Below, one piece after another: positions 6,342-31,801 of a DNA stretch of 64,000 nucleotides. This DNA is from Pseudomonadota bacterium (GTDB lineage Bacteria > Pseudomonadota > Gammaproteobacteria > UBA9214), in contig JBDLIH010000005.1 in assembly GCA_039714975.1 (NCBI GenBank), forward strand, positions 12,857-76,856, in the 5' to 3' direction. The position numbers were made by a program, and so were the translations under genes. The notes below the pieces were generated by a model. That model had not been told where the DNA came from. It did no database searches and saw only the letters and a list, made by a program, of their open reading frames with translations. Numbering within the stretch: position 1 is the stretch's first letter; each line of letters opens with the position of its first letter.

Positions 6342-7204
6342 TTCTTTTTACCCCGCAACCAGGTACGGAAGGCGATGGAGAGGCTGTTCATCAACAACAC
6401 CATGGCGATGAGCACCAGGGCAACACCATAAGGCAGGTTCTCGGGTACACCGGGCACCTGCGTCGATACCACGAACAGGTGCAGGGACATGGCCATGGTC
6501 TGGTCAAAGATACCCTGCGGCAGGAACGGGGTGAAGAATACCGCGCCGGTAAACATGATGGGAGCGGTCTCGCCGGAGGTGCGCGACACCTCGAGAATGA
6601 CACCGGTGAGGATGCCGGAGACGGCATTGGGCAGTACCACGCGGCGGATCGTCTGCCAGCGGGTGGCGCCCATGTTCCAGCAGGCCTCGCGAAATGCATG
6701 CGGGACTGCCTGCAGGGACTCGCGGGTTGCAACAATCACCACTGGCAGGGTCATGATGGCCAGCGTCAGACTGGCTGCGAGAATGCTGGTGCCAAAGCCG
6801 AAAAACAGCACAAAGGCGCCGACGCCAAACAGGGCATGCACGATCGACGGGACACCGGCCAGGTTGATGATGGCCAGGTTGATGATGCGGGTAAACCAGT
6901 TCTCGCCGGCGTATTCACTGAGATAGATGGCGGCTGCAATTCCCAGCGGTACGGAAATGAGTAACGCCACCGCGACCAGCCACATGGTACCCAGCAGGGC
7001 AGGGAAGATGCCGCCTGCGGTCATGCCGTCGGTCGGGGCGGTGAACAGGAAATCGATGGAGATGACCGAGCCGCCCTTTACAATCAAGGTTCCGAGGATG
7101 AGCAGTACTGGTAGAATCAGCAGCACAGTCATCAGCAGGAACAGGATATTGAAGAGTCGCTGGACCCGCTGGTTCCTGATGTTGAGTGCAGATGTCTCAA
7201 ACAT
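6335..7204 (-). CDS. pstA: Phosphate ABC transporter permease PstA
   Basis: Polytopic permease with ...ESLQAVPHAFREACWNMGATRWQTIRRVVLP. ATG 7204 lies just after the pstC stop (7209-7211). The track start is TTG 7234. Confidence 0.9.
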   Translation of the reverse strand: MFETSALNIRNQRVQRLFNILFLLMTVLLILPVLLILGTLIVKGGSVISIDFLFTAPTDGMTAGGIFPALLGTMWLVAVALLISVPLGIAAAIYLSEYAGENWFTRIINLAIINLAGVPSIVHALFGVGAFVLFFGFGTSILAASLTLAIMTLPVVIVATRESLQAVPHAFREACWNMGATRWQTIRRVVLPNAVSGILTGVILEVSRTSGETAPIMFTGAVFFTPFLPQGIFDQTMAMSLHLFVVSTQVPGVPENLPYGVALVLIAMVLLMNSLSIAFRTWLRGKKKW

Positions 7205-7208
7205 GGTC

Positions 7209-8141
7209 TTAGCCTTTGCGTACGCCGCGTACAATCAGATCGGCGGTGAGGTTAATAATGAAGGTGATCAGGAACAGGAAGATGCCGATGGTGAACAGTA
7301 CCTGGTAGTGATCGGAACCCACGGCAGTCTCACCCAGTTCGGCGGCAATCGTGGCCGTCAGGGCGCGCACCGAGTCGAAGATGCTGCCCGGGATGTTGAT
7401 CGAGTGACCTGTCGCCATCAGCACAGCCATGGTTTCACCGAAACCCCGGCCGACACCGAGCAGTACCGCACCCAGCAGGCCGTTTTTTGCAGCCGGCAAT
7501 ACCGTTTTGTAGATGACCTGCCAGCGGGTGGCGCCCATAGCTTCAGCCGCTTCACGGTAGCGGTCAGGCACTGCCTTGAGTGCATCCTCGGCGATGGAGG
7601 TCATGATAGGTGCGGCCATCAATCCGAGGATGATGCCGGCGTTCAGTACGTTCAGTCCCACCGGGACATCAAAGAGTTCAATAATCAGCGGGTTCATGAT
7701 GCTGAGACCTATGAAGCCCCAGACTACCGAGGGGATGGCGGCCAGCAGTTCCACCAGTATCTTGAGGATTTCCCGGGTCTTGCCGGTGGCAAACTCGGCA
7801 ATGTAGACCGCCGCACCCAGTGAAAACGGAATGGCCACCAGCATTGCCAGTCCGGTGACACTGGCCGTGCCCGCGATCAGTGCCAGGATGCCATATTCCG
7901 GATCTTCCTCCTCGGCAGGGTACCAGTAGGGTGAGGTGAAGAATTCCTGGAAATCAAAACGGTCGAGAATAAAACCGAAGCCTTCCTTGGTGACAAAGGC
8001 AAAGATACCAACGACGAAGATGATGGCCGAGATGCCGCCGATGAAGACCAGCAGCTGGACCAGCTTGTCGATATACCAGTCGGCGTTGCGGCGATCGAAG
8101 TCAGCCGCATGGCGACTGCTTGTCGAGGGTTGAGTGGTCAT
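7209..8141 (-). CDS. pstC: Phosphate ABC transporter permease PstC
   Basis: ...AEDALKAVPDRYREAAEAMGATRWQVIYKTVLPAAKNG. ATG 8141 lies 1 nt after the upstream stop (8143-8145). The track start is GTG 8159. Confidence 0.9.
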   Translation of the reverse strand: MTTQPSTSSRHAADFDRRNADWYIDKLVQLLVFIGGISAIIFVVGIFAFVTKEGFGFILDRFDFQEFFTSPYWYPAEEEDPEYGILALIAGTASVTGLAMLVAIPFSLGAAVYIAEFATGKTREILKILVELLAAIPSVVWGFIGLSIMNPLIIELFDVPVGLNVLNAGIILGLMAAPIMTSIAEDALKAVPDRYREAAEAMGATRWQVIYKTVLPAAKNGLLGAVLLGVGRGFGETMAVLMATGHSINIPGSIFDSVRALTATIAAELGETAVGSDHYQVLFTIGIFLFLITFIINLTADLIVRGVRKG

Positions 8142-8142
8142 G

Positions 8143-9228
8143 CTAGGTGGCGCCTTCACCGCGCAGGGCTTCCATCAGGTCACGGACCTGGACAGCCGTA
8201 TCGCGGTAAATCTCTTCCAGCCGGCTGATGCCAGCTTCATCGCTATTTTCCGGGGCGGGGCCGACATCCCACTCCAGGGGAGTTGTGTGGAAGGGGACCT
8301 GGTCGAAGTAGGATTTGACCGGGCCCTGCAGGCTGACGATGACATGTTGCGCGGTCAGTTCCAGTGCGGTCATGTCAAGCGGTCCGGGTTTGGCAGTGTC
8401 AGCAAGGCTTACGCCATGGCTGTCAAGAAATTCCACCATGGCCGGATTCAGTTCGTTGGCAGGCTGTCGCCCGGCGCTGGTGTAGTTGCCGCTTTCGGGA
8501 AAATGCTTGCGGGCAATGGCCTCGGCGATCTGGCTTTGACAACTGTTGTCCTCGTCAATAAACAGGATGTTGTATACCTTGGGTGCCTTGGTGTCCCCGG
8601 TAGAGGCGAATACCGCTTCTTCGCAGAGGTTCTTGGCCTGGTCTGCGACCCGTTTCAACTGGTTGAAAACGGCGAACATTGCCAGCAGGTTCTTGACTGC
8701 GTCCCGGTCGTCATTGGCCATCAATTCGGAATAAATGATATCCAGATCATTCTCCATCTGCTCTTCCAGGATCATGGTGGCTTTTGCCATCTCGGGGTTA
8801 AGCTCGTTAAAGGCCTTGATGGACTGGCCCAGCATGAGTTGCGTCTCGTTGCCGACACGTTCGAGTTCACTGGACATCGGCCCTGACGGAGGTGACGACA
8901 GCTGTATTGCCTCGCGGGCGATGGTGGCTGCGTAATCGCCGATCCGCTCCAGTTCGATGTTTGCCCGGATCACGGAAGACAGCAGCCGCAGATGGCCGGC
9001 ACTCGGCAGATGCAAGGCAATGAATTTATGACACAACTGATCGATCCGCCGCATGGCGCGGTTGATCGGGTGGTCTGCAATTACGGTAGCGGATGCGAGT
9101 TTGCCGTTGCCGGTTTGCAGTGCATGCATGGCATTCCTGACCGCTGTTTCCACCAGCCCGGCCATGTCTGCTACCTGCTCGCGGATAACGATCAGGTCTT
9201 TTTCCAGACGTTCTTCATAGTGACTCAT
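8143..9228 (-). CDS. PhoU-domain protein fused to a catalytically degenerate LMW-PTP/ArsC-like domain
   Basis: The N-terminal ~220 aa is a PhoU duplication (...ANIELERIGDYAATIAREA..., ...VFNQLKRVADQAKNLCEEAV). The C-terminal ~130 aa aligns to the LMW-PTP/ArsC fold (NILFIDEDNSCQSQIAEA...YTSAG...NP). Its P-loop is D-x5-Q instead of C-x5-R. Confidence 0.8.
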   Translation of the reverse strand: MSHYEERLEKDLIVIREQVADMAGLVETAVRNAMHALQTGNGKLASATVIADHPINRAMRRIDQLCHKFIALHLPSAGHLRLLSSVIRANIELERIGDYAATIAREAIQLSSPPSGPMSSELERVGNETQLMLGQSIKAFNELNPEMAKATMILEEQMENDLDIIYSELMANDDRDAVKNLLAMFAVFNQLKRVADQAKNLCEEAVFASTGDTKAPKVYNILFIDEDNSCQSQIAEAIARKHFPESGNYTSAGRQPANELNPAMVEFLDSHGVSLADTAKPGPLDMTALELTAQHVIVSLQGPVKSYFDQVPFHTTPLEWDVGPAPENSDEAGISRLEEIYRDTAVQVRDLMEALRGEGAT

Positions 9229-10241: not shown

Positions 10242-10275
10242 ACTATAACAGCGGGATGTTACCGTTTTGTTACAA
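10242..10275 (-). promoter_or_regulatory. Candidate Pho box plus -10 hexamer upstream of pstS
   Basis: The minus strand reads TTGTAACAAAACGGTAAC (two half-sites 11 bp apart with an A-rich spacer, roughly 12-14/18 to CTGTCATAWAWCTGTMAY). A 10-nt spacer and TATAGT follow. This is the same geometry as E. coli Pho promoters. Confidence 0.5.
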
Positions 10276-10361: not shown

Positions 10362-10712
10362 CTACTTTTTGCCTTTCTTTTTTCCCTTGCCCTTTTTCTT
10401 GTCCTTGTCTTTTCCCTTGCCTTTGTTCTTTTTCTTTTTTTCCTTTTTGTCTTTCTTGCCTTTGACAGCAACCTTGCTCTGTTTCACTGACGCCCCTTTG
10501 TCTGTGTCTGGCCGGGTTGTTCCTGATTCGGCAAGCAGTTCGGTGGCAGCGGCAATGACCCGGGCTGCACGTGCTTCACTGAAGCCGGGAATGGCAGTGA
10601 TTTGTTCGATTGATGCCTTGGAAAGGCTGACAAGGCCTTTGATGCGATGTTCGGCCAGTGTTTCTGCTGCTGCCGGTCCGATGCCCGGAATATCGATAAT
10701 GGCTGGTTTCAT
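10362..10712 (-). CDS. Helix-hairpin-helix (HhH) DNA-binding protein with histone-H1-like poly-Lys tail
   Basis: HhH motifs IPGIGPAAAETL and IPGFSEARAARV. The C-terminal ~40 aa reads KGKKDKKEKKKKNKGKGKDKDKKKGKGKKKGKK. Confidence 0.7.
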   Translation of the reverse strand: MKPAIIDIPGIGPAAAETLAEHRIKGLVSLSKASIEQITAIPGFSEARAARVIAAATELLAESGTTRPDTDKGASVKQSKVAVKGKKDKKEKKKKNKGKGKDKDKKKGKGKKKGKK

Positions 10713-10926
10713 GTTATGCCCCCATTCGTTTTTGACGCCTTACCCATTCGTTGTTGATGCTTTAATTTAGATGAACTTGTAATACTGGCATTTGCCTGAA
10801 TTAGTGGCAATTTTATAGACTGATTATATGATGGAAATTTGATCTGGATCAAATATTACGGCCTGTTGATCCGGGCTCGCAGGGTGCGGGTCTGTCGTCG
10901 CCCGGGGTATTCCGGGATATGAGCAC

Positions 10927-11679
10927 CTATTCCCAGCAAGATATGCGTTGCTTGACATCCTCCCACAGGGCTTCGTAGCAATGGGCCGTGCGACCATTGG
11001 GTGCGAAGTCACCCAGCGGGGTGCGACAGGTCCCCATGCGTTCCACTTGACTGTCGTAGGGTATGGCCGTTTGCAGGAGATTTTTCATGTAGTCCGGCGG
11101 GGTGTCCACGATAGAACTGTGCATTTTTTTGCGGCGATCGACCATGGAGAAGAATGGCAGGATCTTGACGGTATCAAGATCGTGCTGCCGGAAAAACTTT
11201 TGTATCTGCTTGTAGGTACGCAATGACAGGGTGGTGGGTATGGTGGGCACCAGCACGGTGTCGGTTGCCTCGAAGATGTTTTCCGATACCAGGGAAATGC
11301 TCGGCGGACAGTCAAGAAAGACATAGTAATATTCGCTCTTGAAGGGTTTGAGCAGTTTGCGCAACTGGCTTATCGGGTTTTTCGTATGTTCCAGATAGAG
11401 GTCCATCTTGCGGTAGGAAAAATCCGCCGGCAACAGGTCGAGCAGTTCATAATCAGTGCCGCGGATAAAATCTTCCAGGTCACGTTTGCCCTGGACCAGG
11501 CGTTTGCCGCCGCCCTTGATCTTCGGTTTGATACGGAAGTAATAGCTCGCGGCACCCTGGGGATCAAGGTCCCAGACAAGTGTGGGTGCACCCTCGCGGG
11601 CAGCAAGCCAGGCAAGATTGACGGCAGTGGCGGTTTTCCCAACGCCCCCCTTGATATTGTATGTGGCGATTACTTTCAA
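10927..11679 (-). CDS. Orphan ParA/MinD-family ATPase
   Basis: Deviant Walker A KGGVGKTATAVNLA and DLDPQG. Start moved to TTG 11679 (M)KVIATYNIKGG, 10 nt after GGAG and 14 nt below the CHAD gene stop. No parB-like gene is adjacent. Confidence 0.85.
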   Translation of the reverse strand: MKVIATYNIKGGVGKTATAVNLAWLAAREGAPTLVWDLDPQGAASYYFRIKPKIKGGGKRLVQGKRDLEDFIRGTDYELLDLLPADFSYRKMDLYLEHTKNPISQLRKLLKPFKSEYYYVFLDCPPSISLVSENIFEATDTVLVPTIPTTLSLRTYKQIQKFFRQHDLDTVKILPFFSMVDRRKKMHSSIVDTPPDYMKNLLQTAIPYDSQVERMGTCRTPLGDFAPNGRTAHCYEALWEDVKQRISCWE

Positions 11680-11695
11680 GCTTGCGTTTCTCCGG

Positions 11696-13249
11696 CTAAT
11701 GGCTGGATGAGAAAAGTTTTCGGAATCGGTCCTGGTTGTCCTGGCGTGAGAAGCCGGCGTAGCGGCCGGAAAATTCCTCACGTGCCTGGCGCTGGCGCCG
11801 TTCCAGACCATCGATCAGCATACCCATGGCGAGCAGCGTGTCAGGAGGGACTGCGCCTTCGGCAACCATCTGGTGGCTGAATGTTTTCAGGGTGGTGACC
11901 TGTACCTCATAATCCTGAAAGTTACCCAGGTTGTCCTGCAATGTCTTGAGTGTGCGGATTAATTCCTTGATATTGCCGGCCGGGTACAGGCTCAGGAAGA
12001 ACTCCATGAGATAACGCAGTTTCTTGCAGGTCTTGCGCAGTTCATGGAGATCATCCGCGGGCGATTCAGGGGTGATGGCATCGCCTTCCCGGATGACGCG
12101 CCGGAAGATACGCCAGATACGCTCGCTGGCTACCTCAACGACGGGCCGGCCTGCATTTTTCAGCGTCGAGCGTTCGTTGACCGATTCCTCAAGAAAACTG
12201 CGCCAGTTCCTGATCAGACGGCTGTAGCGTGCCGAATTCAGTGCCTTGACCAGGCTTTTGTTTTCAGCTTTCTGGTGTTTGATGAGGAACGTACGCAGTG
12301 GCTCGATATCGGTCTGCACGGCGGCAGGGAGGCTGTTACGGTATTCGTCAAAGTTCAGTAAATAGACATCCAGGTCACGGCTGGGACTGGTTATTTGCCC
12401 GAGCCAGGCAAATTCGGCTTTATATCGGTCAACAATGCGTTTCGGGAACACTGCCTTGATCTGGGAAAGGGCGGAACGGGTACGGCGAATAGCGACCCGA
12501 AAATCATGCAGGAACTCGGTGTCCGTACCGGTGCGTGTGCCGGCCTCGTTTTGCAGCATGATATCAAGTAGCCGATGCAAGATGAGCTTGCTTGCCTCAT
12601 CTGCCCGCATGGCGGGATCCAGTTCCAGGTTCAGTTTGGACGAGTAGTTACCCGGTGTTTCACCGATAGTGGACAGGACCGCCAGCAAGAGATCATCCTC
12701 TGCCGGGCTCAAACCCTGCTGCTGCAGAATTTTTGCTACTGCCTTGCCGGGTTTCGGGAAACCCCTGACCGGAATGATGACTGCCCGATTATCAAGTTTT
12801 CCGGAACGGACTCCTTTCTGTCGAGGCAGGGTGTTTTCCTCGACCACCAGCCAGGCCACCGTTTTTTCGTCCTTGTTCAGGATGCGCAGGGTGTTGGTCC
12901 TGGTGCGAATTCTGAATTTCGGGACCAGTTCGCGCATTTCAAGCACCGGTTCAAGCTGCTTGCGGAGCGGTCCTTGTGGCAGGTCCCAGGCAAATCGGGG
13001 CGCTTTATTCAGCTTCAGGCGGGGACAGCGTTGTTCACCTTTCAGGGTTCGCCATACCAGTGTGTGGCTGTTGCCGTCACGGGTGTCTTCAAGTAGTGAA
13101 TCATCCAGATACAGACGCCAGTCAAAACTGTCATAGTACGTCCGGTAGATCGTCCGTGACGGTTCTGTGAGTAATCGTGTGTTTTCCTGAAGAGTTGACT
13201 GCAAGTCTTCGAAGCACAGGTTCTCGGGAATAATATAATCTATACGCAT
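11696..13249 (-). CDS. CYTH-like (degenerate) / CHAD domain protein
   Basis: CHAD helices EFLHDFRVAIRRTRSAL and DDLHELRKTCKKLRYLMEFF. The N-terminal ~200 aa is CYTH-like (YYDSFDWRL) but lacks ExExK. Start moved to ATG 13249 (MRIDYII...); the longer ORF would overlap the divergent gene. Confidence 0.8.
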   Translation of the reverse strand: MRIDYIIPENLCFEDLQSTLQENTRLLTEPSRTIYRTYYDSFDWRLYLDDSLLEDTRDGNSHTLVWRTLKGEQRCPRLKLNKAPRFAWDLPQGPLRKQLEPVLEMRELVPKFRIRTRTNTLRILNKDEKTVAWLVVEENTLPRQKGVRSGKLDNRAVIIPVRGFPKPGKAVAKILQQQGLSPAEDDLLLAVLSTIGETPGNYSSKLNLELDPAMRADEASKLILHRLLDIMLQNEAGTRTGTDTEFLHDFRVAIRRTRSALSQIKAVFPKRIVDRYKAEFAWLGQITSPSRDLDVYLLNFDEYRNSLPAAVQTDIEPLRTFLIKHQKAENKSLVKALNSARYSRLIRNWRSFLEESVNERSTLKNAGRPVVEVASERIWRIFRRVIREGDAITPESPADDLHELRKTCKKLRYLMEFFLSLYPAGNIKELIRTLKTLQDNLGNFQDYEVQVTTLKTFSHQMVAEGAVPPDTLLAMGMLIDGLERRQRQAREEFSGRYAGFSRQDNQDRFRKLFSSSH

Positions 13250-13337
13250 TTGCTGTCGTGCCCGGATTGCTTTCCGGTAATGAATATATCTGCCCCACGC
13301 TGATAATCCGGTAACCGTATTTTTTATACAGCCCATT

Positions 13338-13372
13338 CTGTCACTAAAACTGCCATTCATGCAATGATAAGT
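13338..13372 (+). promoter_or_regulatory. Pho-box-like direct repeat plus -10-like hexamer upstream of the CNNM gene
   Basis: CTGTCAC-TAAAA-CTGCCAT, then 10 nt, then ATAAGT. The half-site period is 12 bp rather than the canonical 11 bp. Confidence 0.3.
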
Positions 13373-13412: not shown

Positions 13413-14672
13413 ATGATGGAAATTGTTGCTCTGCTGGTGTTGCTGGTTTTTTCCGGAATTTTCTCCGGCTCGGAGACGGCCCTGGTTGCGCTGTCCATGG
13501 CGCGGGTGGGAGCCCTTGTCACGGAAGAGAGAGCGGGTGCGAAGGCGCTCTACCAGCTCAAGAAAGACCCTTCGCGGATGCTGACGACCATCCTGATCGG
13601 TAACAATCTGGTCAATATTGCAGCCTCGGCACTGGCGACGGTTGTTGCAACGCGGGAGTTTGGCAGTGCCGGGCCGGGTATTGCCGTTGGTGTGCTGACC
13701 CTGTTTATTCTGGTGTTTGGTGAAATTACACCCAAGAGCCTGGCGACGCGTTTTTCCGAGCGCATTTCACTGTTTATCGCCTTTCCGTTACTGACATTCA
13801 TGCGCCTGATTTATCCCCTGGTGTGGTTCTTTGGCAATTTCACCAACTGGGTACACCGCCTGACAGGCGGCAAGGGGGATCCAACGGTGACCGAACTGGA
13901 ACTGATCGGGATGCTGGGATACGGTGTTGAGGAAGGCGCCATCGAGCATAATGAGCAGAAAATTATCGAGCGGGTATTTGCCTTCAATGACCTGAAGGTT
14001 CGGGATGTCATGACGCCCAAGGGTAAAATGTTTACCCTGGACAGTGCGCTTTCAGTAGCCGCAGCCATCCCGGTAGTATCGCAGGAGCGCTATTCGCGGA
14101 TTCCCCTGTTTGAAGGACAAAACGATAACATAACGAAGGTGCTATACCTGCGGGACCTGCTCAGGGCTTCTGCCAGCGGGCAGATGGAAGAATCACTGGG
14201 CAGTATTGCCCATGAGCCGCTGTTCGTGTCGCAGTATCAGGCGATCGATGACCTGTTTGCCACCTTGAGACAGCGTAACCGGCTTTTCTCTATCGTGGTG
14301 GATGAATACGGAGATGTACGGGGAATTGTGACGCTCGAAGACCTGCTGGAGGAACTGGTCGGTGAAATCTACGATGAAAGCGATGTTGCGCCACTTGATG
14401 TCGACAGTCTTTCCATGAATGAAATCAGTGTGCCGGGATCTGCTGAACTGCGTGTGGTAGAGGAATTCTTCAATCTGGAACTGCCGGGAAAACCAACCGA
14501 TACGGTCAGTCTGTGGATCTTGAGCCACACGGAATATATTCCCCGCGAGAGTGAAACATTCACAATCGACAATCTGGAAGTCAGGATTGTCAGGGCATCG
14601 GACCGCAGTATCGACCAGGTCAATATACGTTACCCTGCCGGTGTTCCGGACAGTGTTGAAGATGATCAATAA
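13413..14672 (+). CDS. CNNM/CorC-HlyC family transporter (DUF21 + CBS pair + CorC_HlyC)
   Basis: FSGIFSGSETALVAL (DUF21), a CBS pair, and a C-terminal transporter-associated domain. The track start is GTG 13371 and the first ATG pair is at 13413/13416. Confidence 0.85.
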   Translation: MMEIVALLVLLVFSGIFSGSETALVALSMARVGALVTEERAGAKALYQLKKDPSRMLTTILIGNNLVNIAASALATVVATREFGSAGPGIAVGVLTLFILVFGEITPKSLATRFSERISLFIAFPLLTFMRLIYPLVWFFGNFTNWVHRLTGGKGDPTVTELELIGMLGYGVEEGAIEHNEQKIIERVFAFNDLKVRDVMTPKGKMFTLDSALSVAAAIPVVSQERYSRIPLFEGQNDNITKVLYLRDLLRASASGQMEESLGSIAHEPLFVSQYQAIDDLFATLRQRNRLFSIVVDEYGDVRGIVTLEDLLEELVGEIYDESDVAPLDVDSLSMNEISVPGSAELRVVEEFFNLELPGKPTDTVSLWILSHTEYIPRESETFTIDNLEVRIVRASDRSIDQVNIRYPAGVPDSVEDDQ

Positions 14673-14763: not shown

Positions 14764-15966
14764 TTAAGTCAGAGACAGCAAGGCTGCAGCCAGCAGTTCA
14801 GCATCATAATAAGGTGCACTTTGCTTGCTGATCAGACGGGTATCGATGATCCGGATACCCAGTTCCTGCATGAGCGGGGCTGACAGTGATGACGGGTAGT
14901 TACCCCGCTTGCTGTCCATAAGCACAAAATTAAGCAGTTTCCCGTTGGGACACTTGTCGGTGTTATCGGCACGCAGGTAGTCGAGCAGGGTCAGTACGGA
15001 ACTGTCCAGGGTCATACCGATTTGTTCCGGGTCCTGTCCAAGGTTGGGAATGTAGACTTTCGGGCAATCCGTCGCGGCGATGGATGAACCGACGCCTGCC
15101 GGCAACAGGTTGGCCACCAGGCTTGAATAGAAACTACCGGGCGGGTAGCAGATGAGTTCCGACTGCTGGATCAGTCGGCAGTACTTTTTGCGCATTTCTG
15201 CCTTCGCAGCGATGGGTTTGTCGCGATGACTGGACAGGAACAGGCGGCTGACGGGTGACTTCAATGGTGCAGCTTCCTTGCCGGTCAGTCGATGCTGACC
15301 GGTCACGCAACTGCCGTCCTCCAGTTCTGCCGCCAGGTGCAGGTCGTTATTGACCACGGCGAGTACCGTGCCCAGTACATTGACCAGTTTGGAGAACAGG
15401 AAAATGATCGGGTCCAGGTGTTTGTGGTTATTCAGGTAACCGCCGGCAAGAATCAGATTGCCTGTACTGGCGCCACGCAGATCGAAATCATCCGGCATGG
15501 CCTCACGGAAGTAGCCCAGCTGGTTGCGGATCAGCCGGCGCATGGGGTTGGAGATGGCTGCCACCAGTGGTTCCTTGCCCCTGATCATCAGGTCGAGCCT
15601 GGCCAGCAGTTCGTCGGCGGGTTCATCAACGGGAAAACGATAGGTAAATAGCTGGTAAACCTCCGGGTGCCCGGTAATATTTTCATCGGCGAGAGCGACC
15701 AGTCGGCTGCGGAGGTCGCCAATCGACGGCATGGAGAAGGCCTGGCGCAGCTTTGCCGAGCTGCCGCCGGAATCAAAGGGCGTAACCAGGTGGATGGAGT
15801 TGTGCGTGTAGCGTTTTATTACACGGCTCGTGGCGGTGAGGGCAGTCCCGCCGCTGAAAAACAAAATGCGAGGCCCCAGTTCGGGTGCCTTCAGGTAGCG
15901 ACTGAGTCGCACCCGGTCGGGTATTTTTACGGTGCGGGTGATTCTGACAGATTTGTGTTCAGACAC
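14764..15966 (-). CDS. CofD/YvcK-like protein (GAK-system CofD-related type)
   Basis: N-terminal ILFFSGGTALTATSR...LVTPFDSGGSSAKLR is typical of the CofD/UPF0052 fold. Divergent from the ATP-grasp/kinase operon. Confidence 0.75.
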   Translation of the reverse strand: MSEHKSVRITRTVKIPDRVRLSRYLKAPELGPRILFFSGGTALTATSRVIKRYTHNSIHLVTPFDSGGSSAKLRQAFSMPSIGDLRSRLVALADENITGHPEVYQLFTYRFPVDEPADELLARLDLMIRGKEPLVAAISNPMRRLIRNQLGYFREAMPDDFDLRGASTGNLILAGGYLNNHKHLDPIIFLFSKLVNVLGTVLAVVNNDLHLAAELEDGSCVTGQHRLTGKEAAPLKSPVSRLFLSSHRDKPIAAKAEMRKKYCRLIQQSELICYPPGSFYSSLVANLLPAGVGSSIAATDCPKVYIPNLGQDPEQIGMTLDSSVLTLLDYLRADNTDKCPNGKLLNFVLMDSKRGNYPSSLSAPLMQELGIRIIDTRLISKQSAPYYDAELLAAALLSLT

Positions 15967-16115: not shown

Positions 16116-16589
16116 ATGGAATCGATAGTTGCTCCGATACGCAATGCTGCCCGCGCACTGATCAGGCAGGACAATAATATTCTGCTGTTGCGCAAGGAGG
16201 GGTATGAAGACGGTGAGCGCTTTGCCCTTCCCGGGGGAGGGCAGGATTTGGGGGAGACACTGGAACAGGCGTTGCACCGTGAATGTTTGGAGGAAATCGG
16301 TACCCGGGTGGAAATCCATGATCTGGTCCATGTGGCGGACTGTTTCAAGCCGCGGGATACATTGCCCCGCAGCACGCGTCACCTGACCGAATTTCTGTTC
16401 GCGTGTACCGTTCCTGGTGACTATGTACCCGGGAACGGTCACCACCCGGACAAGCACCAGGTAGAGGTGGTCTGGGTCAGGCTGGAGGAGCTGGCGGACA
16501 TGCCGCTTTACCCGAGGGCGCTGGCCCCGTATCTGGTGACATCCAGGGAGAGTGACGGCACCGTTTATCTGGGCACTATCGACTGGTAA
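16116..16589 (+). CDS. Nudix hydrolase (canonical Nudix box)
   Basis: GGGQDLGETLEQALHRECLEEIG matches Gx5Ex7REUxEExGU. Confidence 0.85.
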   Translation: MESIVAPIRNAARALIRQDNNILLLRKEGYEDGERFALPGGGQDLGETLEQALHRECLEEIGTRVEIHDLVHVADCFKPRDTLPRSTRHLTEFLFACTVPGDYVPGNGHHPDKHQVEVVWVRLEELADMPLYPRALAPYLVTSRESDGTVYLGTIDW

Positions 16590-18229
16590 TGAAACTTTCG
16601 AAGCAAATACGCAACAATCTCCGCTTCCTGGTAGCCGAGGTTGGATCCCAGGTCACCAATCTGCAGGCCTATCTTGACACCCCCTCGGCAACCGTCGCAC
16701 GGCGTATTCTTGATCGCAGCGGCTATGCCTATAATCTTATGCTGCGGATACACGACAGTTGCCACAGTCAGGTCATCAAGGCCGGTGAATCCGGTACAGA
16801 GACTGCGTCACTGCGGACCATTGAGTCCATTGCGACTGACCTGGAACATATCACCGGCTTGTGTCGCGAATGCATCCAGCAACTGGACCAGATGCAAAAG
16901 AGGTGTTGTCCCGGTGCCGGCACCTGCAGGTACATGCTTGGCAGTATCATTCAGGGACTGGACCGGATTGAAGATGCGATCCGTCAAAACGATACCCGGC
17001 TGGCTCTCAAGATCGGCCGCATCAAACCGCGCCTGGACAAGGCCAGTCAGAAACTGCTGAGAAAATACACGGCAGGGTTGAAGCACAAGAAACATACGGA
17101 AGACCTGGTGGCAGGGTTGTTCGTGGTTCATGGCATTGAGCAGATGGGCGATGCCATGCTCAATATCAGCGAAGCCATTATATCTGCCAATCTGGGGCAA
17201 CCCATCAATATTGAACGCTACAACTCCCTGCGTGCTTCAATGGAAGAGCTGGATACGGCAAGTAACCATTCAGAACTGGTGGCGGAGACGATTGCAGAAA
17301 CCCGTTCGGGCAGCGGTATTTCCGGTATCAGCTCAACGGGGCAGGAAGATGCCGGCTATGTGGCTATCTACAAGGATGGCAAGAAGCGCAAGTTGCGGGA
17401 GGAGCGCAGGGGCCTTGCAAGCTGGCAGGAAATATACCCGGGGCTGGCGCCGAGGATTCTTTCCTACAAAAAGCGCGGACAATCAGCCTCCTTATTGATT
17501 GAACATCTGGCCGGAATGACATTCGAGCAGATATTGCTGCATGAGCCAGGCCGCTTGCTCAGACAGACCCGGAAGCAACTCAATCGCACTCTGGGAAAGA
17601 TCTGGCGCGAGACGCGTACCGGCAAGCCGGTTTCCGCCGCTTACATGACGCAACTCTCAAAACGCCTGGAGGAGGTGTATACCATTCACCCGGAATTTCG
17701 GACGGATGACTGCCGTATCTGTGGCAAGGCCGTGCCGTCGTTTGGTGCCTTGCTGAAACAGGCACATAAACGCGAAGCCGGGATCAGGGCGCCGTTTTCC
17801 GTGTATATCCATGGCGATTTCAATGTGGACAATATCATCTACGATCCGCTGGAGAAGAAAATCAATTTCATTGACCTGCACCGTTCGCGCTACATGGACT
17901 ACGTACAGGATGTCTCTGTTTTCATGGTATCCAATTACCGCTTGCAGATTTTTGATGCACCACTACGCCGGCGTATCATGTTGCTGACACGGGATTTCTA
18001 CCGTTTTGCAGCGGCCTTTGCCAGGAAATCCGGCGACACAACATTTGAGCTGCGCCTGGCCCTGGGGCTGGCGCGCTCGTTTGCCACATCCACACGGTTC
18101 ATCCTGGACAAGTCACTGGCACGCGCCATGTTCCTGCGTGCGCAGTACCTGCTCGAGCAGGTACTGGCTGCAGACCTGAAAGACCCGGCAGCGTTCCGTG
18201 TGCCGGTTAAGGAGATCTTCATTGGCTGA
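16589..18229 (+). CDS. PhoU-like domain fused to an APH/choline-kinase-fold kinase
   Basis: The N-terminal ~200 aa has two PhoU-like helical repeats (...IESIATDLEHITGLCREC..., ...HGIEQMGDAMLNISEAI). The C-terminus has the kinase catalytic loop YIHGDFNVDNIIYD and NFIDL. There is a TAATG junction with the upstream gene. Confidence 0.65.
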   Translation: MKLSKQIRNNLRFLVAEVGSQVTNLQAYLDTPSATVARRILDRSGYAYNLMLRIHDSCHSQVIKAGESGTETASLRTIESIATDLEHITGLCRECIQQLDQMQKRCCPGAGTCRYMLGSIIQGLDRIEDAIRQNDTRLALKIGRIKPRLDKASQKLLRKYTAGLKHKKHTEDLVAGLFVVHGIEQMGDAMLNISEAIISANLGQPINIERYNSLRASMEELDTASNHSELVAETIAETRSGSGISGISSTGQEDAGYVAIYKDGKKRKLREERRGLASWQEIYPGLAPRILSYKKRGQSASLLIEHLAGMTFEQILLHEPGRLLRQTRKQLNRTLGKIWRETRTGKPVSAAYMTQLSKRLEEVYTIHPEFRTDDCRICGKAVPSFGALLKQAHKREAGIRAPFSVYIHGDFNVDNIIYDPLEKKINFIDLHRSRYMDYVQDVSVFMVSNYRLQIFDAPLRRRIMLLTRDFYRFAAAFARKSGDTTFELRLALGLARSFATSTRFILDKSLARAMFLRAQYLLEQVLAADLKDPAAFRVPVKEIFIG

Positions 18230-19112
18230 ATACAAAATTGGTGTTATCGGTATACCGGGCAAGTGGTCCACGGAAACCCTGGCCGATGCCGTTGAGGAAA
18301 GGACCGGTTACCGGCGGGTAATCGATATGGGTGAGGTGAGCCTTGACCTGGAACGACAGCGCCTGCTGTTCCAGGATCAGGACCTGTGTCAGCTGGATGC
18401 GCTGATCGTCAAGAAGATCAGTGCCAGCTACAACCCCAATACCCTGGATCGCCTGGAACTGCTACGTGTTGCCGAGCAGGCCGGGGTTCGGGTCTTCAGC
18501 CGGGCGGAGAACATCCTGCGCCTGATCGACCGCCTGAGTTGCACCGTTACCCTGCGCAATGCCGGCATCCCCATGCCGGCGACCCGTGTCACCGAGGATA
18601 TCGGGGCGGCAATTACGGCCGTAGAGGATTTTGGCAGCGCCGTCTTCAAACCCCTGTATTCCACCAAGGCGCGCGGCATGTGCGTGATCGATGCTGAACT
18701 TGACCACAGTGAGATTGAACGTGAAATTCAAGCCTTTCAGGCGGAGAATCCCATGATGTATATCCAGCAGAAAATCGAGTTGCCGGGCCGCGACCTGGGC
18801 ATGGTGTTCCTGGCGGGTGATTATCTTGGCAGCTATGCCCGGGTGTCCAGGGACGATGCCTGGAACACGACCATACACAGTGGCGGCAAGTATGCCGCAC
18901 ATACACCACCGGATGCTGTAATAGAGCTTGCACAGCGCTCCCAGGCGCTGTTTGATATGGACTTCACCACGGTCGATGTCGCCGAAACAAAGGAGGGTCC
19001 GATTGTGTTCGAAGTATCGGCATTCGGTGGCTTTCGTGGTGCGCTGGAGGGTATTGGCATCGATGCTGCCGGTTTGTATGTTGAACATGTACTGCGCCAA
19101 CTGACAGTATGA
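18222..19112 (+). CDS. RimK-like ATP-grasp enzyme (GAK-system type)
   Basis: VFKPLYSTKARGMCVI, YIQQKIELPGRDLGMVF and FTTVDVAETKEGPIVFEVSAFGGFRG. Start moved to TTG 18222, 7 nt after AAGGAG (18209-18214). The track start is GTG 18198. Confidence 0.8.
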   Translation: MAEYKIGVIGIPGKWSTETLADAVEERTGYRRVIDMGEVSLDLERQRLLFQDQDLCQLDALIVKKISASYNPNTLDRLELLRVAEQAGVRVFSRAENILRLIDRLSCTVTLRNAGIPMPATRVTEDIGAAITAVEDFGSAVFKPLYSTKARGMCVIDAELDHSEIEREIQAFQAENPMMYIQQKIELPGRDLGMVFLAGDYLGSYARVSRDDAWNTTIHSGGKYAAHTPPDAVIELAQRSQALFDMDFTTVDVAETKEGPIVFEVSAFGGFRGALEGIGIDAAGLYVEHVLRQLTV

Positions 19113-19131: not shown

Positions 19132-20220
19132 ATGGGCTACACAGAAGAATCTGCCGTGAGTGCTTTACAGGCTGAAGCACCTTTGTGTGCTGATGAACTG
19201 TATCTTGCACTCAGTGGCTGTACGCTGAGACTGCGCTCCAACTCCACGGAACTGGTGGCCGTGCTGGCCGATTATTTCTCGCATGTCGCAAGCGAATCAG
19301 TGACGCCTGACGTCGACATCATTGCCATTGAACGCGATGCGCCGGAACTGGATATCAACTTTATTGACTGGGAACGCGAGCCGGGCAAGACCGGACGCAA
19401 GGATTCCTATGCGGACCTGCCGGGTGGACGTCTGGTACGCAAGGTGCGCACCGGCATGGTGTTTCTGCAAAGTGTGCATCACCGTATCGCGGCCGGGCCG
19501 TGCCTGAAATACGACAATCAGGTGATCAACTTTATCAACTCCCAGTACATGAACTGGTTGCAGAACCGGGGCTGGTTGATCTGCCATGCTGCGGGGCTGG
19601 TCTTCCGGGGCAAGGGTCTTGGAATTGCCGGGTTCTCCGGTGGCGGCAAGTCGACCCTGATGCTGCATTTACTGGACAATGATGAGGTATCGTACCTGAC
19701 CAACGATCGTTTGTTCATTCATGCCGGTTCCGGCCAGGTGCAGGCACGTGGCATACCGAAATTGCCACGCATCAATCCCGGTACCATCGTTCACAATCAA
19801 AAACTGCACAGCCTCATTCCTGCACAACAGCGCGAGGCTCTGCTGCAGTTGCCGGCAGCAGAGCTCTGGGAACTCGAGGAAAAATACGACGTGCATATCG
19901 ACAGGGTCTACGGACCCGGCAGGATCACACCGGAGGCCCCCCTGTCAGCATTCCTGATTCTTGACTGGCAACGTGACAGTGACAGCGAACTGCAGGTAGA
20001 GCGGATCGATCTGGCAACACAACGTGATCTGCTGGGTGCCTTGATGAAATCTCCCGGTCCGTTCTACCAGTATCCGGATGGCAGCTTCCAGGAGGATACG
20101 ACCGCCTTTGATGCTTCGGCCTACCTGGATGCACTGGAAAATGTGCCTGTCTATGTTGCCAGGGGGCGGGTTGATTTTTCCACCCTGTCAGACCGCTGTC
20201 TGCAGGAGGTACTGGCATGA
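19132..20220 (+). CDS. HprK-related P-loop kinase
   Basis: GLGIAGFSGGGKSTLMLHLL...LTNDRLFI parallels the HprK/P motif G-SG-GKS...DD. Confidence 0.7.
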   Translation: MGYTEESAVSALQAEAPLCADELYLALSGCTLRLRSNSTELVAVLADYFSHVASESVTPDVDIIAIERDAPELDINFIDWEREPGKTGRKDSYADLPGGRLVRKVRTGMVFLQSVHHRIAAGPCLKYDNQVINFINSQYMNWLQNRGWLICHAAGLVFRGKGLGIAGFSGGGKSTLMLHLLDNDEVSYLTNDRLFIHAGSGQVQARGIPKLPRINPGTIVHNQKLHSLIPAQQREALLQLPAAELWELEEKYDVHIDRVYGPGRITPEAPLSAFLILDWQRDSDSELQVERIDLATQRDLLGALMKSPGPFYQYPDGSFQEDTTAFDASAYLDALENVPVYVARGRVDFSTLSDRCLQEVLA

Positions 20221-24543: not shown

Positions 24544-26376
24544 TTATACCGCATGTTCAAGTACTTCCTCAGGCAGGACAGTCTTGGCCATGCGCTTGGA
24601 GAAATAATAGATCCGCTTCAGTTTCTCGATTAAATCCATTTCGATTGTGTAGGCCTCCAGCCGGTTTGGTTCGTCTGCAACCAGTCGTTTGGCCTGGTGC
24701 ATGGTGGCTGAATCAATCAGACGGGCGATGTCATCTTTCATGGCAATCACTTCCTGCGCGGCCTGCTGGTCAGCTTTCATGACAGCATCCATGGACAGCT
24801 CCGCTGTTGTTGAAACGATGCCATGCAGCTTGTTGAGGACCTCCTGGGTCATATCACTGATGGATACCTCTTTATCGATACGCTGATTACCGAGGTAGAC
24901 CATCTCCTTTTCGATGACATCACCGATATTTTCCAGGTCATTGATGGCCTCCATCAGGTCGACGAGTTCACGGGTCTGCTTTTCCGAGAGCTGATTGCGG
25001 CTGATGCGGCCGAGATATTCGATGATGTGCTTGTAGAGAATGTCGACCTCGTCATCGATTTTGGCAATCTCCTTAAGGGTGGTACGATTACCCGACATAA
25101 TGGCCGGCATGATCTTTTCCAGCATTTTGTTGACGCGCTCTCCCATATGGCCTGCCTCCAGTCGTACCCGGTCCAGCGCCAGCGAGGGGGTTTCAAGGAG
25201 TTCATCGTCAAGATACTTTGGTCTTGCAATCATTTTTTCTGCCATCGGCCTGTCTGGCACCAGCCACTCCACCAGTCGTGCAAACTGGCCGGCAAGTCCG
25301 ATAAAGATGAAAGTATTGGCGACATTGAATACGGTATGGGCATTGGCGATCTGGCGCGGCGCCTCGGCACCCAGCCGGTCGACCCCCGCCAGTTCCGGGT
25401 GGGCGGGTGACAGCCAGGTGACGAATTGTGCCAGGTAGGGGATAAAACCGACCCACAGCAGTACGCCGAAGACATTGAACATGACGTGCACTACCGCAGC
25501 ACGAACGGCTTCCCGGGGTTTGCCGATGGCCGCCAGCATGGCGGTCACGCAGGTACCGATATTGGCACCCAAGGCAAGCGCAATACCGGCCTGCAGGGTA
25601 ATGAAGCCCTGGGTCGCCATTACGATCACGATACCCGTGGTTGCCGAGGATGACTGGACCAGTCCGGTGAAGGCTGCAGCGACCAGAATCCCGACAAACG
25701 GATTTTCCATGCTGGTCATCAGATCCAGGAACGGCTGATAGCTGCGCAATGGCTTCATGGCCTCGCTCATGACGCTCATGCCGAAAAAGACCATACCAAG
25801 CCCCATCAGCATGCCGCCATAGTTTTTTATCTTTTCCTGTTTCGAGAAAAACAGCATGCCGAAACCCACTGCAATCATGAGCAGTGCCGCCTTGGTGACC
25901 TTGAAGGCGACGATCTGGGCGGTGATGGTGGTGCCGATATTGGCCCCCATGATGACACCGATAGACTGGGACATGGACATCAGGCCGGCCGTGATAAAGC
26001 CGACCACCAGTACAGTAGTCACCGACGAGGACTGGATGATAGCGGTTACGAAGGCACCGGTCGCGGCCCCCATGAAGCGGTTGGTCGTCAGTTTCGCGAG
26101 GATGACTTTCATGCGTTCGCCGGCAACCGCCTTGAGTGCGTCGGCCATTTGCTCCATACCGAACAGGAACAGTGCCAGCCCGCCCAGCAGCTTCATGCCC
26201 ATATTCCACCATTCCATTTCACCCGGAGCGCCGCTGGCGGCCAGTGCCAGTGCCGGTGCAGCCATTAGCCCGGCCATTGCCGCACAAATCATTAACAGTG
26301 AAACGGGAATACTCTCCAGCAGACTGATGGCTTTGAAACGATGTCGCATGTTGCTCTCCTCAAGGAGTGTTTTCAT
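24544..26376 (-). CDS. Na/Pi cotransporter family protein with C-terminal PhoU-like domain
   Basis: Duplicated QSSSVTTVLVVGF / QSSSATTGIVIVMA motifs. The C-terminal ~230 aa is helical and PhoU-like. Confidence 0.85.
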   Translation of the reverse strand: MKTLLEESNMRHRFKAISLLESIPVSLLMICAAMAGLMAAPALALAASGAPGEMEWWNMGMKLLGGLALFLFGMEQMADALKAVAGERMKVILAKLTTNRFMGAATGAFVTAIIQSSSVTTVLVVGFITAGLMSMSQSIGVIMGANIGTTITAQIVAFKVTKAALLMIAVGFGMLFFSKQEKIKNYGGMLMGLGMVFFGMSVMSEAMKPLRSYQPFLDLMTSMENPFVGILVAAAFTGLVQSSSATTGIVIVMATQGFITLQAGIALALGANIGTCVTAMLAAIGKPREAVRAAVVHVMFNVFGVLLWVGFIPYLAQFVTWLSPAHPELAGVDRLGAEAPRQIANAHTVFNVANTFIFIGLAGQFARLVEWLVPDRPMAEKMIARPKYLDDELLETPSLALDRVRLEAGHMGERVNKMLEKIMPAIMSGNRTTLKEIAKIDDEVDILYKHIIEYLGRISRNQLSEKQTRELVDLMEAINDLENIGDVIEKEMVYLGNQRIDKEVSISDMTQEVLNKLHGIVSTTAELSMDAVMKADQQAAQEVIAMKDDIARLIDSATMHQAKRLVADEPNRLEAYTIEMDLIEKLKRIYYFSKRMAKTVLPEEVLEHAV

Positions 26377-27998: not shown

Positions 27999-29285
27999 AT
28001 GGGGATCATTGCCGAATACGGCACGGTTTTCATGATACTGGCCATCGTATTTGGCCTCTACCTGACATGGGGTATCGGGGCCAACGATGTCGCCAATGCC
28101 ATGGGCACCTCGGTCGGTTCGGGTGCCATCACCGTCAAGCAGGCGATCATCATCGCCGCAATTTTTGAATTTGCCGGTGCCTTCATTGCCGGTGGTTCAG
28201 TCACCAAGACTATCCGCAAGGGGATCATCAATCCCGAAGCCATTACCGGTACGCCGGAGATCCTGCTGTTCGGCATGCTGGCTGCCATGCTGGCTGCAGG
28301 CGTCTGGTTGATGATTGCCTCCTGGCGGGGATGGCCGGTCTCGACGACCCATACAATCATCGGTGGACTGGTCGGTTTTGCCGTGGTGGCCATCGGCATA
28401 AGCGCTGTCAACTGGGGCAAGATCGGTCAGATAGTCGCCAGCTGGCTGATATCCCCCCTGCTTGGCGGGGCTCTTGCCTATGGTTTGATGATCAGTATCC
28501 AGCGACTGATATTGAGGACCGACAAACCGTTCGAGAATGCGAAGAAATGGGGGCCGATGTATGTCTTCCTGGTCGGCTGGATCGTCAGTCTGGTGACCAT
28601 GTTCAAGGGTCTGAAACATCTGCATCTGGAAATCGGTCCTGTGACCACTTTCGTGCTCGCGGTGTTATTCGGTCTGGTGCTTGCTTACATCGGCAAGCGT
28701 ATGATCAATCGCATCCAGGTCGATGAGGCGGCCGATGAGGAATTTCACTTTGCCAGTGTCGAAAAGGCATTCGCACCCATGATGATATTTACCTCCTGTG
28801 CCATGGCCTTTGCACACGGTTCCAATGATGTTGCCAATGGTATCGGCCCGCTGGCGGCGGTGGTCAGCCTGGTCAAATCTGGCGGTGAAGTGGCGCAGAG
28901 CGCGGATATGCCCTTGTGGATTCTGGTGCTTGGCGGTATCGGCATCGTGGTCGGCCTGACCACGCTGGGTTACCGGGTGATGCGCACCATCGGTAGCGAG
29001 ATCACTCACCTCACGCCCACACGCGGCTATTGTGCGACCCTGGCGGCGGCTACCACCGTGGTGCTGGCCTCCAAGACGGGCTTGCCGGTATCGACAACCC
29101 ACATTGCGGTCGGTGCGGTCATGGGTGTGGGTATGACCAGTGGCGTGGCGGCCGTGGATCTGCGGGTCATCAGGGACATCGTCGCATCATGGGTGATTAC
29201 CCTCCCCGCAGGTGCAGTAATGGCGATAGTGTTCTTTTTCATGCTGAAGGGGATTTTTGGCATAAGCTGTCCCCCCTGTTCCTGA
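27999..29285 (+). CDS. Inorganic phosphate transporter, PiT family
   Basis: PHO4 signatures GANDVANAMGTSVGSGA and GSNDVANGIGPLA. Polytopic. Confidence 0.9.
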   Translation: MGIIAEYGTVFMILAIVFGLYLTWGIGANDVANAMGTSVGSGAITVKQAIIIAAIFEFAGAFIAGGSVTKTIRKGIINPEAITGTPEILLFGMLAAMLAAGVWLMIASWRGWPVSTTHTIIGGLVGFAVVAIGISAVNWGKIGQIVASWLISPLLGGALAYGLMISIQRLILRTDKPFENAKKWGPMYVFLVGWIVSLVTMFKGLKHLHLEIGPVTTFVLAVLFGLVLAYIGKRMINRIQVDEAADEEFHFASVEKAFAPMMIFTSCAMAFAHGSNDVANGIGPLAAVVSLVKSGGEVAQSADMPLWILVLGGIGIVVGLTTLGYRVMRTIGSEITHLTPTRGYCATLAAATTVVLASKTGLPVSTTHIAVGAVMGVGMTSGVAAVDLRVIRDIVASWVITLPAGAVMAIVFFFMLKGIFGISCPPCS

Positions 29286-31593: not shown

Positions 31594-31801
31594 TTTTTCT
31601 ATTGTCTCTCATGGGCTGGCCACCGAATCTATCAGTTTAAAATGACAGGTTAATTGATCCGCATCAAATATATGGAGGTTTCCTGCTGATAATGTAACCT
31701 ATTGGTCCTCGTTTGTTTAGCGATTCGGGATGCATGTATGGCTGCTGCCTGTGCGGACAGGTGGCACAGGGGAGCGCTGGGGCTATCCGGGTATAAGTCA
31801 A

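Follow-up and report, generated by a model that had tools for sequence, protein, structure and literature searches.

Within a 64,000-nucleotide stretch of a gammaproteobacterial genome of the UBA9214 lineage (the window; positions 12,857 to 76,856 of contig JBDLIH010000005.1, assembly GCA_039714975.1), two adjacent minus-strand genes encode a triphosphate tunnel metalloenzyme (TTM)-CHAD protein, whose CHAD domain is predicted to bind polyphosphate (polyP), and a small orphan ATPase of the ParA/MinD superfamily. Judged from its spacing and its recurrence across related loci, the pair is a bicistronic, translationally coupled operon that is deeply conserved, and it repeatedly lies beside genes of polyP metabolism. 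By analogy with known cargo-positioning ATPases, we propose that it specifies a ParA-driven system for positioning polyP granules, in which the TTM-CHAD protein would be the adaptor and ParA the motor, a reading that we consider moderately probable. The first-pass annotation had described three co-directional genes at 10362 to 13249, the third encoding a helix-hairpin-helix (HhH)/poly-Lys protein, and had read them as one granule-positioning module. All three genes are present on the minus strand as described, and the interpretation is partly supported: strongly for the core duo and weakly for the trio, with a mechanism that we infer. Feature coordinates are collected in Table 1.

The CHAD and parA genes are conserved as a pair

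To survey the ParA clade, we scanned GTDB r232, with one genome per species, for two peptide motifs specific to this ParA. The scan returned at least 592 species-level loci, of which the best 80 (55-89% ParA identity) were examined; adjacency was scored in the 71 of these with at least 1500 nt of upstream sequence. A TTM-CHAD gene lies directly upstream of parA on the same strand in 57 of the 71. The co-occurrence anticipated by the first-pass annotation thus holds for this ParA clade and CHAD; the Lys-tail gene accompanies the pair in two lineages only. Across the paired loci, ParA identity to the window protein ranges from 55 to 89% and CHAD identity from 36 to 81%. Carriers include Sedimenticola, Candidatus Thiodiazotropha, Chromatiaceae, Nitrosomonas, Trichloromonas and unnamed Gammaproteobacteria, as well as many Methylococcales, among them Methylotuvimicrobium buryatense 5G and Methylomonas lenta. 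The contigs that hold the loci are large and chromosomal, the longest reaching 5 Mb.

Sorted by sequence, the neighboring genes form at least 26 unrelated clusters upstream of the pair and at least 41 downstream of it, so the pair appears to travel as a unit that has been kept through many rearrangements. Conservation in at least 26 different genomic contexts rules out chance adjacency of the two genes. Downstream of parA, the next gene varies from locus to locus and frequently lies on the other strand. On a neighbor-joining tree, the loci without CHAD are essentially one nested Methylobacter/Crenothrix subclade (including L030, L031, L034, L035, L037, L041, L042, L049 and L051) plus two singletons; because they mostly form a single nested group, the pairing is best explained as ancestral with one main uncoupling. 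In this subclade, the neighbors of ParA are glycogen phosphorylase, Dtd (D-Tyr-tRNA deacylase) or an HDOD-GGDEF protein, and CHAD may have moved elsewhere or the ATPase may have changed its cargo, for example to glycogen. Several source records (L010, L025, L060, L077 and P0056) are labeled as a Halobacteria archaeon, Rhabdothermincola, Actinomycetes or Solirubrobacteraceae. These oddly labeled records carry a proteobacterial-type locus and are likely mis-binned or mislabeled metagenome-assembled genomes, or real transfers.

The two genes are also tightly spaced. Among 58 loci carrying the pair, the overlap between the CHAD stop codon and the start of ParA measures 4 nt at 30 and 1 nt at another 8, giving 38 with overlapping genes, and the gap never exceeds 69 nt. 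In the window the spacer ccggagaaacgcaagc, which contains a GGAG ribosome-binding site, measures 16 nt rather than the 14 originally reported; the gap of 214 nt given for the next gene downstream is exact. A search for a universal small partner open reading frame (ORF), both 5′ of CHAD and 3′ of ParA in all loci, returned no credible candidate, the exceptions being the HhH/poly-Lys gene (9 loci) and a ribbon-helix-helix (RHH)-like gene in Paracoccus.

The CHAD protein combines a predicted polyP binder with a degenerate tunnel fold

The 517-residue product scores 205 bits against the Pfam CHAD model (PF05235; cut-off 25.6), with an E-value of 2e-60. Its residues 202-513 match the Chlorobium tepidum CHAD (CtCHAD) structures 3E0S and 6QV7 over 312 residues (4e-49). 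The domain is a CHAD of the “long” type. For CtCHAD, the closest solved CHAD, the affinity for polyP is nanomolar, and nucleic acids are not bound (PMC6537752). The basic motif FLHDFRVAIRR is identical between the two proteins, and both this motif and LRKxxKKLRY are near-invariant across the 58 loci; in the window they read FLHDFRVAIRRTR and LRKTCKKLRYL. With its basic motifs retained, the domain is a predicted polyP binder. The gene could be opened further upstream by a GTG codon at 13522, in an ORF that overlaps the divergent CNNM gene. We prefer the ATG at 13249 because the homologues are 517-527 residues long and begin MRxEFIIP, features that contradict the longer ORF.

Residues 1-200 have no sequence match in Pfam, NCBIfam or the PDB. 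In particular, the CYTH model (PF01928) gives no Pfam hit at E<=0.01 and none in NCBIfam, so a sequence-level CYTH assignment fails and only a fold search succeeded. An AlphaFold2 model of the domain, built from 20 homologues, has a pLDDT of 88. The top 23 Foldseek matches to it are all TTM proteins (probability 1.0, TM-scores 0.41-0.64), including full-length Escherichia coli YgiF (5A60; query TM-score 0.59). The model thus assigns the domain a CYTH/TTM triphosphate-tunnel fold, and the earlier description of the protein as CYTH-like stands at the level of fold and fails at that of sequence. Strand 1 lacks the catalytic ExExK motif, both in the window, where the N-terminus reads MRIDYIIPEN, and at the N-termini of the 58 loci, in which only a handful of TTM-domain residues are kept. 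Because ExExK is absent and so few residues are conserved, we read the domain as degenerate and probably non-catalytic, hence free for another role.

The ATPase belongs to a distinct clade of Soj-like proteins

The 250-residue ATPase matches Pfam AAA_31 (4e-32) and CbiA (3e-12), lacks an N-terminal extension, and has more than 8000 homologues. All of the best 120 (72-92% identical, about 250 residues) begin MKVIATYNIKGG. This common start and length identify TTG 11679 as the correct initiation codon, as the first-pass annotation had it, and rule out a 294-residue ATG ORF as the real parA. The deviant Walker A motif KGGVGKT, with its signature lysine Lys10, is invariant in the homologue alignment together with Asp37, Asp39 and Asp123. 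These Walker A′ and B aspartates, the size of the protein and the Pfam matches place it in the ParA/MinD deviant Walker A superfamily.

We placed the protein among known families by its PDB and NCBIfam scores. Its nearest solved structures are Myxococcus xanthus ParA (8RAY, 7e-22), Thermus thermophilus Soj (1WCV, 9e-15) and Helicobacter pylori Soj (3e-13); McdA (6NOO/6NON, 3e-7 over the N-terminal 154 residues) and MinD (4e-6) are much more remote. It passes no curated NCBIfam cut-off. ParA_partition scores 73 bits against 180, with RepA, SopA and PrgP far below their cut-offs, and no ParB or RHH ORF stands beside the pair in the 58 loci, so the protein does not fall among the chromosome or plasmid partition ParAs (ParABS, types Ia and Ib). 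It is likewise no MinD (TIGR01968, 35 bits against 213), the C-terminal eight or so residues being variable and motif-free; because the extreme C-terminus varies, a MinD-type membrane helix is unlikely. Nor is it a BcsQ, a name that some sources give such proteins (TIGR03371, 58 bits against 158), and no bcs genes occur in the neighborhoods scanned. It is not a McdA either: similarity to McdA is weak, and no carboxysome genes lie nearby in the window. ParB families are also missing from the neighbor families matched by at least two members in a Pfam scan of loci carrying the pair, and the claim that no parB-like gene adjoins parA in the window is correct. The separation from partition families on which the earlier proposal depended therefore holds for family cut-offs and for ParB; it does not extend to the nearest structures, which are chromosomal ParA/Soj proteins.

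Arg183 aligns with Arg189 of Soj, which we take, after Hester and Lutkenhaus 2007, to be an arginine essential for non-specific DNA binding. The isoelectric point of the window protein is 9.0. Plasmid-borne best matches are at most 49% identical. Taken together, these comparisons set the protein in a clade of its own, made up of small, highly conserved Soj-like ATPases that are constantly partnered by a predicted polyP binder.

The pair lies among phosphate and polyP genes

Directly upstream of the pair and on the same strand, Pfam assignments place PPK1 in four loci. The immediate neighbors on the upstream side also include H+-pyrophosphatase (two), His_Phos (four), CNNM/CorC magnesium transporters (six), a PstS-like protein (one) and PepN (seven); downstream are PPK2 (two), PPX (two), PstS (two), PhoX (one) and MgtE (one). 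The order ppk1-CHAD-parA recurs in two loci (L098 and L113) of an independent sample seeded with the window PPK1. This repeated proximity to polyP enzymes, added to the coupling and co-conservation described above, bears out the CHAD-ParA link drawn by the first-pass annotation.

In the window, the pair sits inside a phosphate/polyP island of about 35 kb (237-34626). The island begins with phoR, phoB, two pstB-like genes, pstA, pstC, a fusion of PhoU with a low-molecular-weight phosphatase (LMWPc), and pstS. It continues with the HhH/poly-Lys gene, parA, CHAD, a CNNM gene, a CofD-like gene, a NUDIX gene, a PhoU-APH fusion and a RimK-like gene, and ends with His_Phos-NUDIX, His_Phos, a metallophosphatase, a Na/Pi-PhoU transporter, PHO4, ppk1 and two more CNNM genes. 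In total it holds three CNNM/CorC genes, two metallophosphatases and two PstB-like ATPases. The pstSCAB-phoU-phoBR genes adjoin the pair, and ppk1 lies 16 kb off. We know of no function for the two PhoU fusions, which relatives retain. Rfam and tRNA scans of the window detected nothing.

Table 1 Features of the window, and the Paracoccus operon for comparison (the latter in the coordinates of its own loci)
Feature	Position	Strand	Basis or remark
TTM-CHAD gene, 517 aa	11696..13249	-	ORF; Pfam CHAD; homologue lengths
TTM/CYTH-fold domain, about aa 1-200, without ExExK	12650..13249	-	AlphaFold2 model and Foldseek
CHAD domain, aa 202-513	11711..12646	-	CtCHAD alignment; conservation in 58 loci
Intercistronic spacer, 16 nt, with GGAG	11680..11695	-	Sequence
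ParA/Soj-like ATPase gene, 250 aa, TTG start, no adjacent ParB	10927..11679	-	Pfam AAA_31, CbiA
Deviant Walker A motif, aa 10-16	11632..11652	-	Homologue alignment
HhH/poly-Lys gene, 116 aa: (HhH)2 domain aa 5-56 and 40-residue K/G/D tail	10362..10712	-	Pfam HHH_5
FNR-type palindrome, HhH/poly-Lys promoter region	10839..10852		Overlaps best sigma-70-like -35 hexamer
Second FNR-type box, ppk1/CNNM divergent promoter region	31654-31667		Conserved in 2 of about 9 relatives
Conserved block, divergent CNNM/CHAD promoter region	13335..13347		Alignment of 9 relatives
Direct repeat upstream of pstS	10257-10273		Strongly conserved in relatives
PhoU-LMWPc (low-molecular-weight phosphatase/ArsC-like) fusion	8143-9228	-	Kept in relatives (L081, others)
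CofD-like gene	14764-15966		Island
PhoU-APH/EcKL-type kinase fusion	16589-18229	+	Kept in relatives (L081, others)
RimK-like ATP-grasp gene	18198-19112		Island
362-aa ORF	19132-20220	+	Island; no Pfam match at 1e-5
Na/Pi cotransporter-PhoU fusion	24544-26376		Island
PHO4/PitA	27999-29285		Island
PPK1	29302-31593		Island
880-aa ORF	49265-51907	-	No Pfam match at 1e-5
Paracoccus operon: RHH/ParG-like basic protein, CHAD, ParA, CYTH, NUDIX (second CYTH)	L084 4299-7651; L170 2288-6249		Plasmids; overlapping genes

The HhH/poly-Lys protein is a lineage-specific accessory

The 116-residue protein encoded downstream of parA has the composition originally ascribed to it, with two HhH motifs (Pfam HHH_5, 3e-11, 44 bits against a cut-off of 27) and a Lys-rich tail in which the last 40 residues comprise 24 Lys, 6 Gly and 3 Asp (60% Lys; family mean 58%). 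Its two motifs and its score above the gathering cut-off assign it, by sequence, to the (HhH)2 non-specific DNA-binding domains. IPGIGPAAA and IPGFSEARA are invariant among 27 homologues. The wider family comprises 408 homologues of 105-140 residues, which share the invariant motifs MKPxIxDIxGIGPAA and PGFSxxRA and vary in the length of the K/G/D tail.

The gene adjoins parA in L001-L007, L009, L081 and the distant locus L067, and in the window's clade it always stands between parA and pstS. It is absent from the close relatives L008, L010 and L011 and, L067 excepted, from the other lineages with the pair. L067, a Chromatiales genome whose ParA is 59% identical to that of the window, has the order CHAD-ParA-HhH/poly-Lys with sox-like genes upstream, hsdM downstream and no pst genes. 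There the ORF (6856-7536, 226 residues) continues beyond the Lys tail for about 90 residues and enters the beginning of hsdM, probably through an assembly frameshift or a lost stop codon. The trio proposed by the first-pass annotation does not hold as a unit, since outside the window's clade the HhH/poly-Lys gene joins the pair in just one distant Chromatiales genome, and since it appears to have its own promoter. From this distribution, we regard the protein as a lineage-specific accessory outside the conserved unit.

A different small basic protein accompanies the pair in Paracoccus. On Paracoccus plasmids, CHAD again overlaps ParA (42-44% identical to that of the window), and the start of CHAD is overlapped in turn by the gene for a 62-residue basic protein that has sub-threshold RHH/ParG-like matches and is not homologous to the HhH/poly-Lys protein. 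Because the module has acquired small basic DNA-binders of different folds on at least two occasions, their role is probably real but accessory. The same operon continues into CYTH and NUDIX genes, which hint at a metabolic rather than a purely spatial role, and several Paracoccus plasmids have only one detected ParA-like place. The operon may combine a polyP-binding ParA module with triphosphate/pyrophosphate hydrolases, or may double as a plasmid par locus.

Candidate regulatory sites

A perfect FNR-type palindrome, TTGAT-N4-ATCAA, lies in the HhH/poly-Lys promoter region and is kept in all nine close relatives while its flanks diverge. The overlapping promoter-like site (10852 to 10823) has 10 of 12 matches, which gives the HhH/poly-Lys gene a predicted promoter of its own. 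The 64-kb window contains two perfect FNR-type boxes against 0.08 expected, the other lying between ppk1 and a divergent CNNM gene. Co-regulation of the HhH/poly-Lys gene and ppk1 through these boxes is at most a lead, the ppk1-side box being kept by just 2 of about 9 close relatives; that box may instead serve the CNNM gene. The boxes may mean that polyP handling is under oxygen- or redox-linked control.

A conserved block, TTAGTGACAGAAT, in the promoter region between the divergent CNNM and CHAD genes resembles a Pho-box half-site and could be bound by a regulator. The E. coli Pho-box consensus has 10 matches in the window against 6.2 expected, which is not significant, and none lies upstream of the operon. 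Aligned in register with the E. coli pstS Pho box, the direct repeat GTAACAAAACGGTAACA agrees at 17 of 23 positions and is probably the PhoB site of this lineage; this Pho-like repeat is located upstream of pstS only.

A model for ParA-driven positioning of polyP granules

In the model that we favor, the TTM-CHAD protein would coat the polyP granule through its CHAD domain, and ATP-bound ParA dimers would bind the nucleoid non-specifically, as in ParABS and McdAB. Granule-bound TTM-CHAD would contact ParA, perhaps through the degenerate TTM domain that has lost its catalytic motif, and would stimulate ATP hydrolysis. A zone of local ParA depletion would then form around the granule, and granules would move up the ParA gradient, which would space them evenly and share them between daughter cells. 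In the window's lineage, the separately transcribed HhH/poly-Lys protein would probably add a static bridge between DNA and polyP, in a role like that of AlgP. In its widest form, the proposal is that polyP granules have a ParA system of their own, driven by ATP and spread over at least 592 species-level genomes of the Gamma-, Beta-, Alpha- and Deltaproteobacteria, with a catalytically dead TTM-CHAD “phosin” as cargo adaptor and small basic DNA-binding tethers added independently by different lineages (HhH/poly-Lys in the window's clade, RHH-like in Paracoccus); this wider claim seems to us evenly poised between right and wrong. A bolder variant would have the basic ParA bind the polyP surface itself, instead of or besides DNA.

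Several observations weigh against the positioning model. No short basic peptide of the kind that stimulates ParA ATPases was found in the CHAD protein, whose N- and C-termini are poorly conserved across the 58 loci, and the second DNA-binding arginine of Soj is absent at the aligned position of ParA. Relatives of the ATPase at 40-59% identity occur without CHAD, the Methylobacter/Crenothrix subclade among them, as do Halomonas, Pontibacter and Marinobacter replicons in which ParA is 40-49% identical and no CHAD adjoins. The pairing figures describe the best 80 of the 592 or more loci, and the Paracoccus operon holds CYTH and NUDIX hydrolases as well.

These hydrolases lend themselves to another explanation, that the pair is a polyP-turnover or regulatory module in which the ParA-like ATPase acts as a nucleotide-dependent switch or assembly factor (compare BcsQ, FlhG and MipZ) and recruits or gates PPK, PPX, TTM or NUDIX enzymes at the granule surface through the CHAD protein. 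The gene order in Paracoccus, the PPK1, PPK2 or PPX genes directly beside the pair in several lineages, and the NUDIX, His_Phos-NUDIX and metallophosphatase genes of the window island all fit such a role, and a 2019 paper proposed an enzymatic role, as adenylate cyclase, for the Acidithiobacillus CYTH-CHAD protein. However, the hydrolase genes do not share the conservation of the pair, the ParA-linked TTM domain has lost ExExK and is so poorly conserved that the partner itself is probably no enzyme, and the structures nearest to the ATPase are those of DNA-binding chromosomal ParA/Soj proteins; we think this reading, the main rival, rather improbable. The same structural kinship could instead mark the ATPase as an ordinary type Ib partition protein of a chromosome, chromid or plasmid, with CHAD merely co-transcribed or with polyP granules serving as a DNA-segregation hub. 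Paracoccus again gives this some substance, since its module is plasmid-borne, is preceded by a sub-threshold RHH/ParG-like protein of the type Ib partner type, and is the single ParA-like place detected on several plasmids. Against it stand the lack of any ParB or RHH gene with the pair in the 58 gamma-, beta- and deltaproteobacterial loci, the variable and often oppositely oriented downstream gene, the location in large chromosomal contigs, the ParA_partition score far below its cut-off and the distance to the best plasmid matches. An ordinary DNA-partition role is unlikely outside Paracoccus, and as a general account it is very improbable.

A separate question is whether the HhH/poly-Lys protein belongs to the CHAD-ParA system at all. 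It could be an independent histone-like nucleoid protein under FNR-type control that stands beside ParA through lineage history only, an option that falls just short of evenly balanced. Its own promoter with the conserved perfect box, its absence from most lineages with the pair, including close relatives, and a family of 408 homologues against more than 8000 for ParA are all consistent with independence. Yet the distant Chromatiales genome has the same three-gene order in a different context, and Paracoccus has added to the pair a small basic DNA-binder that is not homologous. The window's one further perfect FNR-type box is at the ppk1/CNNM promoter region, and binding of polyP by Lys-rich tails is established for AlgP.

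Relation to known systems

The proposed system resembles McdA/McdB, in which an orphan ParA-type ATPase without ParB is likewise encoded beside the binder of a non-DNA cargo. In both, the nucleoid is the proposed matrix, and equidistant spacing and inheritance are the predicted outcome. Here, however, the cargo would be polyP and the partner is a folded TTM-CHAD protein of 517 residues encoded upstream, whereas McdB is small, disordered and encoded downstream; the ATPases themselves are only weakly similar, and the positioning function is a predicted one. With chromosomal ParA/Soj, its closest solved relatives (8RAY, 1WCV), the window ATPase shares KGGxGKT and the position of the Soj DNA-binding arginine, but it has no ParB/parS partner, scores below the ParA_partition cut-off and is paired with CHAD. 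AlgP of Pseudomonas aeruginosa is a histone H1-like protein that spaces polyP granules, and its loss yields fewer, larger granules. The HhH/poly-Lys protein similarly joins a small structured domain to a long Lys-rich tail and is a predicted DNA/polyP binder; by its described architecture, AlgP differs in having a coiled-coil N-terminal domain and KPAA-type repeats in place of (HhH)2 and a K/G/D tail, and it works without a known ATPase.

CHAD proteins decorate polyP granules in vivo, and the window protein has the same TTM-CHAD architecture as the phosins and their relatives (YgiF, CtCHAD, Ralstonia eutropha PptA). It differs from YgiF and PptA in a TTM domain that lacks ExExK and is invisible to sequence models, and in its coupling to ParA, which is undescribed for those two proteins. 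Two papers (PMC6416229, PMC10892726) draw a folD-ppk-parA-CHAD cluster as conserved across Acidithiobacillus; parA figures in them as an ordinary partition gene, and their subject is cAMP or copper. Judged from the published drawings, the adjacency of ppk1, parA and CYTH-CHAD there is like that reported here; those papers propose no positioning role and survey no other phyla. The parA-CHAD adjacency itself was on record for Acidithiobacillus, with no function read into it. In the open-access papers and bioRxiv preprints searched, no ParA system for polyP granules is described, in agreement with the first-pass annotation.

Implications

The field openly acknowledges that it lacks an account of how bacteria space their polyP granules and pass them on. 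A 2025 review lists AlgP as the sole polyP-granule factor and poses the need for energy as a question, and a 2026 study of the cyanobacterium Synechococcus calls the polyP positioning mechanism “yet-to-be discovered”. If correct, our proposal would join a ParA ATPase to the one domain known to bind polyP specifically and would offer a genetically testable candidate, with cultured carriers in Methylotuvimicrobium buryatense, Paracoccus, Sedimenticola, Nitrosomonas and Acidithiobacillus. Phosins, for which deletion phenotypes have so far been unclear, would gain a function, and the system would matter for sediment bacteria that cycle polyP and for the biotechnological removal of phosphorus. As a variant of the cargo-positioning theme, it would add a mineral-like storage granule to the cargos of the ParA/MinD family.

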